NCBI GenBank assembly: GCA_018816865.1
Contig: JAHIUW010000023.1
Location: forward strand, 1 to 64,000
Direction: 5' to 3'
Origin: Pseudomonadota bacterium
GTDB taxonomy: Bacteria > Desulfobacterota > Desulfovibrionia > Desulfovibrionales > Desulfovibrionaceae
Length of the DNA stretch: 64,000 nucleotides
Numbering within the stretch: the first letter of the stretch is position 1; the number at the start of each line of letters is the position of its first letter. A program made the position numbers and the translations under genes. The notes below the pieces were generated by a model. It was not told where the DNA came from. It ran no database searches and worked only from the letters and a program-made list of their open reading frames with translations. Positions 39,511-45,506 of this stretch are shown here, piece by piece.

Positions 39511-40593
39511 GTGGGGCTGAGACTCACGGATATCAGTAGAACCGTCGGCCAGGAGATGCATCTTGCGGATGTGAATCTTGAGCTCAAGACGGGCTCGCGG
39601 TATATCATTCTGGGGCGGACCCTGGCCGGCAAGACCTCGCTGTTGCGGATCATGGCCGGGTTGGATCGCCCGGGCACGGGGAAGGTGCTGGCGGACGACA
39701 AGGACGTGACCGGGGTCTCCGTGCGCAAGCGCGATGTGGCCATGGTCTACCAGCAGTTCATCAACTATCCCTCGCTGACCATCTATAAAAACATCGCCTC
39801 TCCCCTGAAGATCGCCGGAGTGTCCAGGGCCGAGGTCGACCGCCGTGTGCGCGAGGTCGCCAGGACCCTGCAGCTTGATCCCTTGCTGGATCGGCTGCCG
39901 GCCGAGCTGTCGGGCGGGCAGCAGCAGCGCACGGCCATTGCCCGGGCGCTGGTCAAGGAATCGCATCTGCTGCTCCTGGACGAACCCCTGGTCAACCTGG
40001 ACTACAAGCTGCGCGAGGAACTGCGCGAGGAATTGCAGCACATCTTCATGGAGCGCGAATCCATCGTGGTCTACACCACCACCGAGCCCACCGAAGCCCT
40101 GATGATGGGCGGCAACGTCGTGGTCATGGACCAGGGGCGCATCCTGCAGATCGGCAAGACCACCGAGGTCTTCAACCACCCGCGGAACATGAAGGTGGCC
40201 GAGGTCTTCAGCGATCCGCCCATGAATTTCATCCCGGCTCGGATCGTGGACGGCCAGGCCCGCCTGAGCGCCTGCATGCAGGCACCTCTGGTGGGCGGTT
40301 TGCAGGGGCTGACCCCCGGTGAATACACCTTTGGCGTACGAGCCAGCCGGGTGTTCCTGAACCAGCGGCACGAGTCGGACATCAGCCTGTGCGGAGAGGT
40401 TGCGCTGAGCGAGATCAACGGCTCGGAGACCTTCATCCACGTGGGCTGCGGCAGGATCAAGCTGGTGGCTCAGGAGGACGGAATCCACGGGATCAAGGGC
40501 GGCAGCAACCTGCCCCTGTTCATCAACCCTGAGGACTTTTACGTCTTTGACGCGAACGGCGATCTGCTGATTGCCCCGACCGCGATGGACTAA
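39511..40593 (+). CDS. ABC ATPase paralogue with a degenerate Walker A (GlpS-like); first of two ATPases in a glycerol-type ABC importer.
   Basis: GRTLAGKTS in place of GxxGxGKST. LSGGQQQR and LLLDEP retained. MalK-like C-terminal domain. Confidence 0.8.
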   Translation: MGLRLTDISRTVGQEMHLADVNLELKTGSRYIILGRTLAGKTSLLRIMAGLDRPGTGKVLADDKDVTGVSVRKRDVAMVYQQFINYPSLTIYKNIASPLKIAGVSRAEVDRRVREVARTLQLDPLLDRLPAELSGGQQQRTAIARALVKESHLLLLDEPLVNLDYKLREELREELQHIFMERESIVVYTTTEPTEALMMGGNVVVMDQGRILQIGKTTEVFNHPRNMKVAEVFSDPPMNFIPARIVDGQARLSACMQAPLVGGLQGLTPGEYTFGVRASRVFLNQRHESDISLCGEVALSEINGSETFIHVGCGRIKLVAQEDGIHGIKGGSNLPLFINPEDFYVFDANGDLLIAPTAMD

Positions 40594-40606
40594 GCGGAGG
40601 CCGACA

Positions 40607-41692
40607 GTGGCGCGAATCGACCTGGTAGAGGTGGCGCACAGCTACCACCCCCGGCCCAAGGGCCCTGAAGATTTCGTCTTCAAGCGCATCCACACCACCT
40701 GGGAGGACGGCGGGGCCTATGCCCTGCTCGGCCCTTCCGGATGCGGCAAGACCACCATGCTCAACCTGATCTCGGGCCTGCTGGCCCCGTCGCACGGCAA
40801 GATCCTCTACGACGAGCGCGATGTGACCCGCCTGCCGCCCGAGCAGCGCAACATCGCCCAGGTCTTCCAGTTCCCGGTGCTCTACGACACGATGAGCGTC
40901 TACAACAATCTGGCCTTCCCCCTGCGCAACCGCGGAATGAGCGAGACCGAGGTCAGGGAGCGCGTGGGCATCGTGGCCGAGATCCTGGGCCTGTCCGCCG
41001 ACCTGGACAAGCGTGCGGCCGGGCTGGCCGCCGATGCCAAGCAGAAGATATCGCTCGGTCGGGGGTTGGTGCGCAGCGACGTGGCGGCCATTCTGTTCGA
41101 CGAGCCCTTGACCGTCATCGATCCGCACCTGAAGTGGCAACTTCGCAGGAGTCTGAAGGAGATCCACAAGGAATTCGGGCTGACCATGATCTATGTGACC
41201 CACGACCAGGTGGAGGCCATGACCTTCGCCGACAAGGTCGTGATCATGTACGACGGTGAACTGGTCCAGACCGGGGCCCCCGACGAGCTGTTCGAGACAC
41301 CGGAACACACCTTTGTGGGCTATTTCATCGGCAGTCCGGGCATGAATTTCATGGACTGCACCCTGGAGGGTGGCGTGGCCCACGCCAATGGTTCAGCGAT
41401 CCCCGTGGACGCCGAGTACGCGGCCCGGGCACAGGCCACGGGCAGTTCCCTGAAGATGGGCATCCGCCCCATGTACCTGGAGGTGCGCGAGTCCGAGGTC
41501 ACGGGCAGCGTCCCGGGCCGGGTGACCCATGTCGAGGATCAGGGGCACTGCAAGATCGTCACGATCAAGCTGGGCGAATTGACCCTCAAGGCGCGCATCA
41601 TGGACGGCCGGGCCATTCCCGCCGGGAGCTGCCACCTGGTGTTTCCGCCTGAAAAGATCAAATTCTTCGCTGATGACCGGCTGGTGAAATAA
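40607..41692 (+). CDS. Canonical ABC ATPase (GlpT/UgpC/MalK-like). GTG start with GGAGG RBS; the track ORF starts at 40571.
   Basis: GPSGCGKTT, LGRGLV, FDEPL; C-terminal TOBE/MalK regulatory domain. Confidence 0.85.
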   Translation: MARIDLVEVAHSYHPRPKGPEDFVFKRIHTTWEDGGAYALLGPSGCGKTTMLNLISGLLAPSHGKILYDERDVTRLPPEQRNIAQVFQFPVLYDTMSVYNNLAFPLRNRGMSETEVRERVGIVAEILGLSADLDKRAAGLAADAKQKISLGRGLVRSDVAAILFDEPLTVIDPHLKWQLRRSLKEIHKEFGLTMIYVTHDQVEAMTFADKVVIMYDGELVQTGAPDELFETPEHTFVGYFIGSPGMNFMDCTLEGGVAHANGSAIPVDAEYAARAQATGSSLKMGIRPMYLEVRESEVTGSVPGRVTHVEDQGHCKIVTIKLGELTLKARIMDGRAIPAGSCHLVFPPEKIKFFADDRLVK

Positions 41693-41703
41693 CGGAGACC
41701 GAT

Positions 41704-43396: not shown

Positions 43397-43675
43397 ATGC
43401 AACTCGAATGGATGGCCTGGACTCCGGTGACCGCGGGGTTCTTCATCGTGATCGTGGTCATGCTCATCGGCATGACAACCTGGGAGGTCGTTTCCCCCAA
43501 TATCGAACGCAAGGGCTTCTTGCCCATCGCCACCACCCGTGGGGATCGCCTGTTCATCGGGCTGCTTGGCAGCGCCTATATCCATCTGGCCTGGATCGGC
43601 CTGACGGATCTGAGTCTTTGGATCGCCACTGTCATCTCGGTTGGGTTCATGGTCGGTCTGATGCGTTGGGGCTAG
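43397..43675 (+). CDS. DUF2160-family small membrane protein (GlpU-like).
   Basis: 92 aa, two TM helices; WEVVSPNIERKGFLPIATTRGDRLFIGLL is typical of DUF2160 proteins found in glycerol ABC loci. Confidence 0.65.
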   Translation: MQLEWMAWTPVTAGFFIVIVVMLIGMTTWEVVSPNIERKGFLPIATTRGDRLFIGLLGSAYIHLAWIGLTDLSLWIATVISVGFMVGLMRWG

Positions 43676-43766
43676 GCCCCGACGCCATGCAGAGCCGACG
43701 AAGAGGGACAGGGGGTCCTGTTGTTAACGGGAGTCTGTACGAAACGTGCAAACGAGGAGGATGATC

Positions 43767-45506
43767 ATGCGGACCATGGTTCCAAAATTGCTGTCGGGCG
43801 TTGTCGTCCTGGCGGTCCTGCTGAGTGCGGGGCTGGCAGGGGCGAGCGATGCCCAATACGCGGCCGCAGCCAAGACGTGGGTGGACAAGGAATTCCAGCC
43901 CTCCACCCTGTCCAAGGCGGACCAGATGAAGGAAATGGAGTGGTTCACCAAAGCCGCCGCTCCGTTCCGTGGCATGGAGATCAAAGTCGTCTCCGAAACC
44001 ATCCCCACCCATGAGTACGAATCCAAGGTGCTCACCAAGGCCTTCGAAGAGATCACCGGCATCAAGGTCACCCACGACCTGATCCAGGAAGGCGACGTCA
44101 TCGAGAAGCTGCAGGTCCAGATGCAGTCCGGCGAAAACGTCTTTGACGCCTACGTCAACGACTCGGACCTGATTGGCACCCACTACCGTTACGGCTTCGT
44201 GGTCAACCTGACCGACTGGATGGCGGGCGAAGGCAAGGACGTGACCCTGCCGACCCTGGATATCGACGACTTCATGGGCAAGAGCTTCACCACCGCCCCG
44301 GACGGCAAGCTCTATCAGCTGCCCGACCAACAGTTCGCGAATCTCTACTGGTTCCGCTACGACTGGTTCAACCGCGCCGACTTCAAGAAGGCCTTCAAGG
44401 CCAGATACGGCTATGAACTTGGCGTGCCCGTGAACTGGTCTGCCTACGAAGACATCGCCGAGTTCTTCTCCGAAGACGTGCGCGAGATCGACGGCAAGGC
44501 CATCTACGGCCACATGGACTACGGCAAGAAGGCCCCGGACTTGGGTTGGCGCTTCACCGACGCCTGGCTGTCCATGGCCGGTGCCGGTGACAAGGGTCTT
44601 CCCAATGGCAAGCCCGTTGACGAATGGGGCATCCGTGTGGACGGTTGCCGTCCCGTGGGCGCCAGTGTGTCCCGCGGCGGCGCCACCAACGGCCCGGCCG
44701 CCAAGTACGCCCTGCAGAAGTACATGGATTGGCTGCGCAAGTATGCCCCTCCGGGAGCCCTGGGCATGGACTTCTATCAGTCCCTGCCGAGCCTGGCCAA
44801 GGGCAACGTGGCTCAGCAGATCTTCTGGTACACCGCCTTTACGGCTTCGATGATCGAAAAGGGGACCCCTGTGGTCAATGACGACGGCACGCCCAAGTGG
44901 CGCATGGCTCCGTCACCCCACGGCCCGTACTGGGAAGAGGGTCAGAAGTTGGGCTACCAGGACTGCGGTTCCTGGACGTTGATGAAGAGCACCCCGGTGG
45001 ATCGCCGCAAGGCAGCCTGGCTGTATGCCCAGTTCTGCGTGGCCAAGACCACTTCCTTGAAGAAGACCCATGTGGGCCTGACCCCGATCCGCGACTCCGA
45101 CATCCGTCATGAGTCCTTCACCAAGCGCGCCCCGCAGCTGGGCGGTCTGGTGGAGTTCTACCGTAGCCCGGCCAGGGTCTCCTGGACCCCCACCGGCACC
45201 AACGTGCCCGATTACCCCAAGCTGGCCCAGCTGTGGTGGCAGAACATCGGTGAGGCCGTCTCCGGCGAAGTCACCGTGTCCACCGCCATGAACAATCTGG
45301 CGGCCGAGCAGGACAAGATCATGATGCGCATCGAGCGCTCGGGCGTACAGGGCGAATGCGGCCCCAAGATGAATCCCGAACGGGACGAGGAATACTGGCT
45401 CAAGCAGCCCGGTTCCCCCAAGGCCAAGGTCAACGAGAAGCCCAAGGGCGAGACCGTGCAGTACGACGATCTGATCAAGGCCTGGCGTGAAGGTCGCGTG
45501 AAGTAG
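43767..45506 (+). CDS. Large family-1 substrate-binding protein (GlpV-like, glycerol ABC importer). ATG at 43767 with AGGAGG RBS.
   Basis: Signal peptide, about 570 aa SBP. Gene order: two ATPases, two permeases, DUF2160, SBP. Confidence 0.8.
   Translation: MRTMVPKLLSGVVVLAVLLSAGLAGASDAQYAAAAKTWVDKEFQPSTLSKADQMKEMEWFTKAAAPFRGMEIKVVSETIPTHEYESKVLTKAFEEITGIKVTHDLIQEGDVIEKLQVQMQSGENVFDAYVNDSDLIGTHYRYGFVVNLTDWMAGEGKDVTLPTLDIDDFMGKSFTTAPDGKLYQLPDQQFANLYWFRYDWFNRADFKKAFKARYGYELGVPVNWSAYEDIAEFFSEDVREIDGKAIYGHMDYGKKAPDLGWRFTDAWLSMAGAGDKGLPNGKPVDEWGIRVDGCRPVGASVSRGGATNGPAAKYALQKYMDWLRKYAPPGALGMDFYQSLPSLAKGNVAQQIFWYTAFTASMIEKGTPVVNDDGTPKWRMAPSPHGPYWEEGQKLGYQDCGSWTLMKSTPVDRRKAAWLYAQFCVAKTTSLKKTHVGLTPIRDSDIRHESFTKRAPQLGGLVEFYRSPARVSWTPTGTNVPDYPKLAQLWWQNIGEAVSGEVTVSTAMNNLAAEQDKIMMRIERSGVQGECGPKMNPERDEEYWLKQPGSPKAKVNEKPKGETVQYDDLIKAWREGRVK

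Follow-up and report, generated by a model that had tools for sequence, protein, structure and literature searches.

A GlpSTPQUV-type, probable glycerol importer beside glpR and glpABK in a Desulfovibrionaceae genome, with a predicted degenerate ATP site shared by its two ATPases

The window (the 64,000-nucleotide stretch of contig JAHIUW010000023.1 analyzed here) carries six genes on the forward strand in the order glpS-glpT-glpP-glpQ-glpU-glpV, with glycerol catabolic genes nearby (Table 1). Open reading frames, gene calls of the source contig, and Pfam matches bear out the composition proposed in an earlier sequence-only reading, namely two ATPases (ABC_tran, E values of 4e-29 and 3e-20), two permeases (both BPD_transp_1), a small DUF2160 protein matched over its full length, and a large substrate-binding protein (SBP; SBP_bac_1, E value of 2e-17). 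Since the transporter region is coding sequence with such strong family matches, a chance pattern is excluded. The open reading frame of glpV begins at position 43746 (586 aa); the start adopted here agrees with the gene call and is backed by a GAGGAGG ribosome-binding site. A protein identical to GlpQ is encoded on the ENA contig ERZ27247128 k141_927785.

Table 1. Genes and candidate regulatory elements of the transporter locus (positions in the window)
Feature	Position	Strand	Evidence or remark
glpK, glycerol kinase	30590..32170	-	NF000756, 765.6 bits (cutoff 498); Pfam FGGY_N, FGGY_C
HdrB-like CCG-domain protein, 338 aa	32213..33229	-	Pfam CCG, E 3e-21; HdrB is top NCBIfam match, below cutoff
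Membrane iron-sulfur protein (NarI-like N-terminal part, 4Fe-4S dicluster domains)	33226..35118	-	Fer4_8, E 1e-21; Nitrate_red_gam, E 1e-8
glpB, anaerobic glycerol-3-phosphate dehydrogenase subunit B	35115..36554	-	NF003725, 566.7 bits (cutoff 345)
glpA, anaerobic glycerol-3-phosphate dehydrogenase subunit A	36551..38293	-	TIGR03377, 559.2 bits (cutoff 552.8)
Promoter/operator-like block	38387..38445	+	In AT-rich glpA-glpR spacer
glpR, DeoR/GlpR-family repressor	38576..39409	+	HTH_DeoR, DeoRC; NF008154, 331.8 bits (cutoff 331)
glpS, MalK-like ATPase, 360 aa	39511..40593	+	Family and motif alignments
glpT, MalK-like ATPase, 361 aa	40607..41692	+	Pfam ABC_tran and OB_MalK; ORF opens at 40571
glpP, permease (UgpA/MalF-type)	41704..42573	+	Pfam BPD_transp_1, E 1e-17; UgpA is top NCBIfam match, below cutoff
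glpQ, permease (MalG/UgpE-type)	42575..43378	+	Pfam BPD_transp_1
glpU, DUF2160 small membrane protein	43397..43675	+	Pfam PF09928, E 3e-38
glpV, large periplasmic SBP, 579 aa with signal peptide	43767..45506	+	Pfam SBP_bac_1
Intrinsic-terminator-like hairpin directly 3' of glpV	45529..45558	+	11-bp G+C-rich stem, 4-nt loop, U5

The glpR gene, whose start follows the source-contig gene call, lies beside the transporter genes, and the glpA-glpB-(Hdr-like)-glpK cluster runs divergently. NCBIfam and Pfam searches thus corroborate the adjacency to glpR and glpABK that had been proposed: GlpR, GlpA, GlpB, and GlpK all exceed their NCBIfam cutoffs and are encoded within 9 kb. GlpC is replaced by the HdrB-like protein and the membrane iron-sulfur protein; the latter, whose NCBIfam matches to GlpC, HdrC, and QmoC are partial and all below cutoff, is presumed to serve as a quinone-linked electron exit for GlpAB. 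The glpA-glpR spacer (45% G+C) contains a candidate promoter/operator block consisting of TTGTGA, 17 nt, and TACGAT, with a GTGAACGT box within the spacer. This block, which a consensus promoter scan did not flag, is nearly identical in Desulfovibrio ferrophilus, whereas the rest of the spacer is poorly conserved, and a similar box, TTTTCGCTTGCGAACATTTT, is found upstream of glpS in three other loci (L004, L008, and L050). The hairpin downstream of glpV (folding energy of -31 kcal/mol, z score of -2.9) was missed by a simple terminator scan and was found by reading the sequence.

The region encodes a standard version of GlpSTPQUV, a glycerol transporter that is already known. The order of two ATPases, two permeases, DUF2160 protein, and large SBP is identical in all 70 complete loci that were compared and, in agreement with the proposed match to rhizobia, in Rhizobium leguminosarum pRLG204 (glpR-glpD-STPQUV-glpK). 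The locus is fully syntenic with that of D. ferrophilus IS5, and the proteins are 89 to 93% identical (89% for GlpS, 93% for GlpV). The sequence-only reading had expected an SBP of roughly 570 aa that groups with GlpV; the protein encoded here, of 579 aa, is 69.7% identical to the R. leguminosarum orthologue over 92% of its length, 75% identical to the one from Thalassospira, and 84 to 93% identical to proteins from the glpK/glpAB/glpR clusters of other Desulfobacterota. For scale, the Cupriavidus metallidurans protein, an accepted homolog, is 63% identical to GlpV of strain VF39 (PMC7912956). The 69.7% identity places GlpV among the GlpV-like proteins rather than among binders of oligosaccharides or polyamines; homologs of GlpV are labeled "glycerol transport system substrate-binding protein" by JGI. 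A PDB search with GlpV returned no solved relative (best E value of 2e-4).

MalK-like nucleotide-binding domains (NBDs) that bear a regulatory domain at the C terminus (E values of 1e-55 to 1e-67 against solved MalKs), two BPD_transp_1 permeases, and an SBP_bac_1-type periplasmic binding protein make this a type I (CUT1/MalK-type) importer and are shared with MalFGK2-MalE and UgpAEC-UgpB. However, those systems have an NBD homodimer in place of two different NBDs with one degenerate ATP site, they lack the additional DUF2160 subunit with its three transmembrane segments, and their SBPs are ∼150 residues shorter. The NCBIfam equivalog scores for UgpC, MalK, UgpA, and UgpE are all below cutoff, so the transporter is neither Ugp nor Mal itself. 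The closest system is GlpSTPQUV of R. leguminosarum, with verified or annotated orthologues in Ruegeria pomeroyi (glpVSTPQ), C. metallidurans (Rmet_2229-2234), Ralstonia sp. RRA, and Pseudodesulfovibrio methanolicus. The locus shares with these the six-gene order, an SBP that is ∼70% identical, the DUF2160 gene between glpQ and glpV, linkage to the genes for GlpR, GlpK, and a glycerol-3-phosphate dehydrogenase, and the same GlpS and GlpT motif signatures. It differs in that the host is a relative of anaerobic sulfate reducers, GlpAB with an Hdr-like membrane module takes the part of GlpD as the dehydrogenase, and the catabolic genes diverge from the transporter operon rather than flanking it.

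Glycerol uptake by glpSTPQUV was described in R. leguminosarum VF39 (Ding 2012, as cited in PMC7912956), the SPO0608 mutant of R. pomeroyi loses ∼80% of its growth on, and drawdown of, glycerol (PMC10130141), and the Ralstonia cluster is induced ∼38-fold on glycerol (PMC11223650). It had been suggested that the system was unreported in sulfate reducers, but it is already known there: a cluster in Desulfomicrobium baculatum (Dbac_1434-1446) was described in 2018 (Santos et al., as cited in PMC11505543), and a glpK-hdr-like-glpBA-glpR-glpSTPQUV cluster was described in 2024 in P. methanolicus, which grows on glycerol with sulfate (PMC11505543). Of 15 Pseudodesulfovibrio type strains, 6 have the glycerol cluster (PMC11505543); D. 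baculatum does not grow on glycerol despite having the cluster.

Some DUF2160-type systems are found beside non-glp genes, which indicates that specificity may vary across the family. One paralogous system (L087) adjoins genes for a Zn-alcohol dehydrogenase and for an FGGY kinase, and the Pseudomonas loci adjoin sigma-54 activators and have no glp genes in their vicinity. Import of another solute, such as a small polyol or a glycerol derivative, with a glp neighborhood that is only partly informative, would accommodate these systems, as well as the C. metallidurans mutant lacking the transporter, which still grows on glycerol and in which the transporter affects zinc resistance (PMC7912956). 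For the transporter described here, this seems rather improbable, given the identity of its GlpV to the Rhizobium orthologue and to the glp-cluster proteins of Desulfobacterota, the position of the operon among glpR, glpAB, and glpK, and the growth on glycerol of P. methanolicus, which bears a homologous cluster. Glycerol is the probable substrate. By a hydropathy and charge census, GlpU contains three hydrophobic segments and a basic loop, TTRGDRLF (43532 to 43555), that is conserved. Wherever the flanking sequence of a locus suffices, glpU is the gene between glpQ and glpV. GlpU could be an accessory membrane subunit and may be dispensable, as the description of the R. pomeroyi system (PMC10130141) and KEGG list five components without DUF2160.

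GlpS and GlpT are 29% identical to each other, and wherever a locus has both genes, they are neighbors. Their motifs were assigned from gap-free alignments to solved MalK homologs, a family alignment, and a census over ∼70 loci. The Walker A string of GlpS that had been taken as noncanonical, GRTLAGKTS (residues 35 to 43; 39613 to 39639), is real, but it satisfies the P-loop pattern GxxxxGK[ST], with Lys and Thr invariant, and differs from the ABC-typical GxSGxGKST only in having Leu for Gly at position 4 and TS for ST at its end, so that it is weak evidence for impairment. The decisive substitutions had been overlooked. In GlpS, Val12 replaces the aromatic residue of the A-loop and Thr191 replaces the His of the H-loop (VYTTTEP, 40069 to 40089), whereas the Q-loop (MVYQQF), Walker B (LLLLDEP), and signature (LSGGQQQR, 39907 to 39930) are intact; the D-loop reads LVNLD. 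GlpT has a canonical Walker A (GPSGCGKTT, 40730 to 40756) and consensus A-loop (Tyr13), Walker B (AILFDEP), and H-loop (IYVTHDQ, 41189 to 41209), but its signature is LAADAKQK (41024 to 41047) where LSGGQ is expected, and its D-loop is LTVID. Hence, the losses do not make GlpS the single degenerate ATPase that had been suggested: both proteins carry them, on one shared site. The deviations all map to a single composite ATP site and leave the second one fully consensus, which supports the earlier suggestion of a heterodimeric ATPase with one site predicted to be impaired.

This pattern does not vary among the ∼70 loci, which represent Desulfobacterota as well as Alpha-, Beta-, and Gammaproteobacteria. 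The asymmetry is therefore a family trait rather than an organism-specific one. Among GlpS proteins, Y[AT]TTEP is found in 69 of 69 loci, LSGGQQQR in 68 of 68, and DEP in every sequence that spans the motif; the alignment has 71 rows (the window and 70 loci), and 60 of them show Val at the position of the A-loop residue. In GlpT, THDQ is found in 75 of 75 loci, L-x-[AP]-D-x-K-Q-x in 74 of 74 (LSGGQ in none), and the A-loop Tyr in 71 of 71 rows. GlpS is the least conserved component (mean identity to the window of 52%, compared with 57 to 78% for the others), as might be expected if it were a decaying, nonfunctional duplicate and a GlpT homodimer alone powered transport. That is very hard to reconcile with the intact glpS frame in every complete locus and with the conservation of GlpS, 26% of whose columns have the same residue in at least 93% of sequences, those of LSGGQQQR, DEPLVNLDYKLREELR, and TTEP among them; moreover, in a GlpT homodimer each good P-loop would face a degenerate LxADx signature, leaving no consensus site. 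Homodimers of either protein would have two defective sites, and only the GlpS-GlpT pair would form a fully consensus one, which argues for a heterodimer of complementary subunits.

The invariance of the Lys, Thr, Gln, and Asp-Glu residues of GlpS argues that nucleotide binding is kept under purifying selection, and with the Walker A Lys, Q-loop Gln, and Walker B Glu in place, some hydrolysis at the degenerate site is possible. Both sites might even be competent, the variants being tolerated family quirks in a transporter with two hydrolytic sites like MalFGK2; the signature Ser is kept by GlpT in 29 of 74 loci (LSAD...), and a Thr in place of the H-loop His might, in principle, form a hydrogen bond with the γ-phosphate. 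We regard full competence of both sites as unlikely, because across ∼70 loci the same composite site carries five independent deviations (in GlpS, those of the A-loop, of position 4 in Walker A, and of the H-loop His; in GlpT, the replacement of GG by A-D in the LSGGQ motif and the D-loop), and the second site matches the consensus perfectly. In MalK, HisP, and HlyB, substitution of the H-loop His nearly abolishes ATPase activity. The H-loop His and the signature of MalK contact the γ-phosphate of ATP, and Walker A residue S38 and H-loop residue H192 have been described as touching it (PMC6906923). With the Walker A Lys and Thr kept but the H-loop His missing from GlpS and the signature GG missing from GlpT, the degenerate site would be expected to bind ATP without hydrolyzing it.

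Complementary deviations of this kind are known from the asymmetric ABC proteins TM287/288, TAP1/2, CFTR, MRP1, and Pdr5. Those, however, are exporters or channels with another transmembrane-domain fold, and they usually lose the Walker B Glu. GlpS and GlpT keep that Glu; what is missing instead is the His of the H-loop, the aromatic residue of the A-loop, and the GG of the partner. Among binding-protein-dependent importers, RbsA and NupO, whose CUT2-type NBDs are fused, have been described on the basis of sequence as having one degenerate ATP site (PMC11466899). Unlike GlpS and GlpT, these carry both NBDs in one polypeptide, lack the Walker A Lys at the degenerate site, belong with another permease family, and are not MalK-like. 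Our literature search found no paper describing the asymmetry of GlpS and GlpT.

Taken as a whole, the locus is likely to encode a GlpSTPQUV orthologue, a MalK-type glycerol importer whose mechanism includes one degenerate ATP site. In the host, an uncultured close relative of D. ferrophilus, GlpR would repress the divergent operons. Periplasmic GlpV would bind glycerol and dock onto the GlpP/GlpQ permease pair; once inside, glycerol would be phosphorylated by GlpK and oxidized by GlpAB, with electrons passing to the Hdr-like membrane module. GlpS and GlpT would pair as an obligate heterodimer whose two ATP sites differ. Hydrolysis is expected at the consensus site, formed by the Walker A, Walker B, and H-loop of GlpT and the LSGGQ of GlpS, and the site formed by the GlpS P-loop and the GlpT LAADA motif would most likely hold ATP with poor or no hydrolysis. 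Such a site could have a structural or allosteric role, as in the asymmetric ABC exporters, in which case ∼1 ATP would be spent per transport cycle.

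Family matches identify all six closely packed ORFs of the transporter operon, as well as the glpR, glpA, glpB, and glpK genes next to it, bearing out the gene content described in the sequence-only reading. A DeoR/GlpR-type regulator gene lies upstream of glpS, and the divergently transcribed genes code for GlpA, GlpB, a NarI-like/4Fe-4S membrane protein, an HdrB-like CCG protein, and GlpK. NCBIfam cutoffs are exceeded by GlpA, GlpB, GlpK, and GlpR; the best matches for the transporter proteins (UgpC, MalK, UgpA, and UgpE) each fall well under cutoff, so that the transporter is MalK/Ugp-like but neither Mal nor Ugp. 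The glpT ORF opens at 40571, and its tabulated start was taken from the source-contig gene call and from aligned homologues. The glpV ORF opens at 43746, with the real start 7 codons downstream, at an ATG preceded by a GAGGAGG ribosome-binding site. The last gene of the operon, glpV is found behind a 91-nt spacer and is directly followed by a strong hairpin and U5. A consensus promoter/terminator scan returned nothing relevant, missing both this hairpin and the conserved block in the glpA-glpR spacer.

Features of the glycerol transporter locus and of other regions of the window
Feature	Coordinates	Strand	Basis
Second ABC importer and molybdopterin oxidoreductase	20124-26310		
Fused double permease, 629 aa	20124-22013		
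SBP_bac_8 protein	22033-23052		
Molybdopterin oxidoreductase	24196-26310		
NarI-like/4Fe-4S membrane protein (630 aa) and HdrB-like CCG protein	32213-35118	-	
Conserved block in the glpA-glpR spacer	38387-38445		
Transporter operon	39511-45506	+	six ORFs
GlpS ATPase, 360 aa	39511-40593	+	ORF, ABC_tran (Pfam)
GlpT ATPase, 361 aa	40607-41692	+	ORF, ABC_tran (Pfam)
GlpP permease	41704-42573	+	BPD_transp_1 (Pfam)
GlpQ permease	42575-43378	+	BPD_transp_1 (Pfam)
GlpU, 92 aa	43397-43675	+	DUF2160 (Pfam), E 3e-38 across the full model
GlpV binding protein, 579 aa	43767-45506	+	SBP_bac_1 (Pfam)
Cluster of redox genes	52016-61698	-	
Tandem universal stress protein	52016-53017		
CCG-domain protein	53092-54540		
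HdrA-like flavoprotein/ferredoxin fusion, 1141 aa	54641-58066		

The proposed match to the rhizobial GlpSTPQUV system is confirmed by plasmid pRLG204 of Rhizobium leguminosarum bv. trifolii WSM2304, which has the same gene order (glpR, glpD, two ATPases, two permeases, DUF2160, SBP, and glpK) and an SBP 69.7% identical to that in the window; identity to other alphaproteobacterial orthologues reaches 75%. According to PMC7912956, this order is the published glpSTPQUV arrangement of strain VF39, and glycerol uptake in R. leguminosarum uses this transporter. In Ruegeria pomeroyi, a transporter mutant showed an ∼80% decrease in growth and drawdown on glycerol (PMC10130141), and the Ralstonia cluster is induced ∼38-fold on glycerol (PMC11223650). 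When species-representative genomes were scanned using an alignment of DUF2160, at least 571 loci were confirmed, and the 80 best were examined. These come from Desulfovibrionaceae, Desulfomicrobium, Desulfobacterales, Desulfuromonadales, and Syntrophobacteraceae, as well as from Rhodospirillales, Pseudomonas, and Burkholderiales. The S-T-P-Q-U-V order is found in all those of the best 80 that have sufficient flanking sequence, and most adjoin glpK, glpR, and a glycerol-3-phosphate dehydrogenase gene.

The suggestion that the system was unreported in sulfate reducers is contradicted by Pseudodesulfovibrio methanolicus, a species that grows on glycerol with sulfate and likewise has the cluster (glpK, Hdr-like genes, glpBA, glpR, and glpSTPQUV); the glp cluster is present in 6 of the 15 Pseudodesulfovibrio type strains (PMC11505543). 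Santos et al. 2018, as cited in that paper, placed it in Desulfomicrobium baculatum (Dbac_1434-1446). The locus adds one more sequence of a known, named transporter, from a lineage with earlier reports of it. Its nearest named relative is Desulfovibrio ferrophilus IS5 (GlpS 89% and GlpV 93% identical), whose chromosome (AP017378.1) is syntenic across the entire glp region and the downstream flank; one permease in the window is identical to a gene on the 163-kb ENA metagenome contig ERZ27247128 k141_927785. Horizontal transfer of the operon was considered and left no clear signal: its G+C content (0.61 to 0.63) is slightly below that of the flanks, and GC3 is similar.

E. coli-type GlpC is missing from the window, with GlpAB followed instead by the NarI-like/4Fe-4S membrane protein and the HdrB-like CCG protein, and the loci of D. 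ferrophilus and other Desulfovibrionaceae are arranged alike. This replacement suggests that electrons from glycerol-3-phosphate reach the quinone pool by another route. The window also carries a cluster of redox genes and, upstream, a second ABC importer with a molybdopterin oxidoreductase gene nearby; the latter two are unrelated to the glycerol transporter.

The glpA-glpR spacer is AT-rich (45% G+C) and contains a block that is nearly identical in D. ferrophilus, whereas the surrounding spacer has diverged. In this block, TTGTGA and TACGAT stand 17 nt apart and enclose a GTGAACGT box, and related TTTTCGCTTGCGAACATTTT boxes are found upstream of glpS or glpR in other Desulfovibrionaceae loci. 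The block and the boxes are candidate promoter and GlpR-operator elements. CGAACA-type boxes are denser in the spacer than in the window, which, given the AT-richness of the spacer, is a lead only. Ahead of glpS, the window has a sigma-54-like GG-N10-GC element, which was rejected because it is weak and lacks conservation in the other sulfate-reducer loci. Three Pseudomonas loci (L013, L014, and L029) have no glp genes within 10 kb and carry a divergent gene for a sigma-54 enhancer-binding protein, a TGGCAC-N5-TCGC site, and a TGTTCA repeat array ∼260 nt upstream of glpS, indicating regulation unlike that of the GlpR-controlled loci.

Of the 80 loci examined, 70 are complete, and in each of these the glpU gene separates glpQ from glpV. 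GlpU has three hydrophobic segments; its loop 1 is basic (mean of 4.7 Lys plus Arg) and carries a near-invariant TTRGDRLF motif, and the N-terminus and second turn are acidic. By the positive-inside rule, this charge pattern would place the N-terminus outside and the C-terminus and the conserved loop in the cytoplasm. GlpU may tentatively be regarded as a putative accessory membrane subunit; a full-text literature search for "DUF2160" found no papers. GlpV exceeds the typical length of CUT1 binding proteins by ∼150 residues and is very highly conserved, with 84 to 93% identity among its top 120 homologues. A search of PDB sequences with GlpV gave no more than a partial match (E value of 2e-4) and no solved relative, and an AlphaFold2 model from a shallow alignment (28 homologues, 84 to 93% identical) had a mean pLDDT of 46.8 and was unusable. 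In the 70 complete loci (within L004 to L083), mean identity to the window proteins is 78% for GlpQ, 70% for GlpP and GlpV, 62% for GlpU, 57% for GlpT, and 52% for GlpS, so the membrane and binding components are better conserved than the ATPases. In ABC importers, the usual trend is the opposite.

The motif states of the two ATPases were read from gap-free alignments to solved MalK homologues (E values of 1e-63 and 5e-67).

Motif states of GlpS and GlpT in the window
Motif	GlpS	GlpT
A-loop position	Val12, no aromatic residue	Tyr13
Walker A	GRTLAGKTS, atypical	GPSGCGKTT, canonical
Q-loop Gln	retained	retained
Signature	LSGGQQQR, canonical	LAADAKQK, degenerate
Walker B Asp-Glu	retained	retained
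D-loop	LVNLD	LTVID
H-loop	VYTTTEP, Thr191 replaces His	THDQ, canonical

All deviations map to one composite site, formed by the P-loop side of GlpS and the signature of GlpT; the site combining the P-loop side of GlpT with the GlpS LSGGQ is full consensus. In MalK, S38 of Walker A and H192 touch the gamma-phosphate and the D-loop of the partner (PMC6906923). The proposal of one impaired ATP site had been based on the GlpS Walker A. That motif is indeed atypical, with Leu for Gly in position 4 of the ABC-typical GxSGxGKST and TS instead of ST at its end, but it still conforms to the P-loop core GxxxxGK[ST] and is weak evidence alone for a defective site. The proposal survives on the different and far stronger evidence of the H-loop, the A-loop, and the signature, as a property of the family rather than of this organism.

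A motif census at ∼70 loci, using the glpS and glpT that precede the DUF2160 gene, found G-x-T-x-[AS]-G-K-T-[ST] among the common GlpS Walker A variants listed, MVYQQF in 67 of 67 sequences, LSGGQQQR in 68 of 68, DEP in all those covering the motif, and the H-loop Y[AT]TTEP, never with His, in 69 of 69; the A-loop position is Val in 60 of the 71 alignment rows (70 loci plus the window). In GlpT, Walker A is canonical throughout, the signature is L-x-[AP]-D-x-K-Q-x (74/74) and never LSGGQ, and THDQ (75/75) and the A-loop Tyr (71/71 rows) are invariant. The 120 closest GlpS homologues conform as well, and the pattern is thus an old, selected trait of the family. The strictly kept nucleotide-binding residues of GlpS argue that the degenerate site would still bind ATP. 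Only the heterodimer gives a consensus site, and either homodimer would have two defective ones, which argues for an obligate GlpS-GlpT pair.

A search with GlpS against 1.84 billion cluster representatives returned the His-less H-loop Y-A-T-[TSPA]-[ED]-P in ∼125 of the 150 best matches; among the matches listed, proteins with canonical THDQ and Walker A start at ∼38% identity. In three of the representatives (P0326, P0341, and P0348), the Walker A is GlpS-like (G-x-T-L-[AS]-GKT) but the H-loop is the canonical THDQ; they could be evolutionary intermediates or assembly chimeras. Two distant loci provisionally extend the asymmetry beyond GlpSTPQUV, each having an NBD1 that lacks the H-loop His and keeps xSGGxxQR and an NBD2 canonical apart from a degenerate signature. 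L087 (JGI 3300045017 Ga0438303_0001647, 4385-13094; NBD1 YATPEP, NBD2 signature LTPAKKQK) is a full six-gene DUF2160-type operon that adjoins genes for a Zn-alcohol dehydrogenase, an FGGY kinase, and a split GntR regulator, with no glp genes beside it, and its transporter may be a paralogous importer of another polyol. L084 (Logan SRR28822788_30807, 68-5602; NBD1 YATPDP and ISGGERQR, NBD2 GPSGCGKTT, LDAGIKQK, and THDQ) is CUT1-like, with the order SBP (508 aa), permease, permease, NBD, NBD and without DUF2160. A possible reading, with slightly less than even confidence, is that GlpS/GlpT-type pairs, with one NBD lacking the H-loop His and its partner lacking LSGGQ, represent a large, apparently undescribed clade of MalK-like, binding-protein-dependent type I importers in which a degenerate ATP site is hard-wired, extending beyond the DUF2160 systems. 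Reviews present degenerate sites as an exporter feature, and one has been noted in the fused-NBD importers RbsA and NupO (PMC11466899); a literature search that covered subscription journals in part found no report of such sites in GlpS/GlpT or MalK-type importers.

For the window, little changes: the interest is modest, as this is a routine orthologue of a family genetically tested in other bacteria, and it accounts for a potential ability of a D. ferrophilus relative to scavenge glycerol and pass it through GlpK and GlpAB to sulfate respiration. The family-level asymmetry is a worthwhile side result. Degenerate sites have been discussed nearly only for ABC exporters, and here a type I importer family has a strictly conserved complementary asymmetry, so the question of whether one hydrolytic site is enough for binding-protein-dependent import becomes directly testable in a natural system. 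The DUF2160 protein would be an unstudied additional membrane subunit. If the site is truly non-hydrolytic, these transporters would be natural one-ATP-per-cycle type I importers and would serve as a simple bacterial system in which to ask why degenerate sites evolve.
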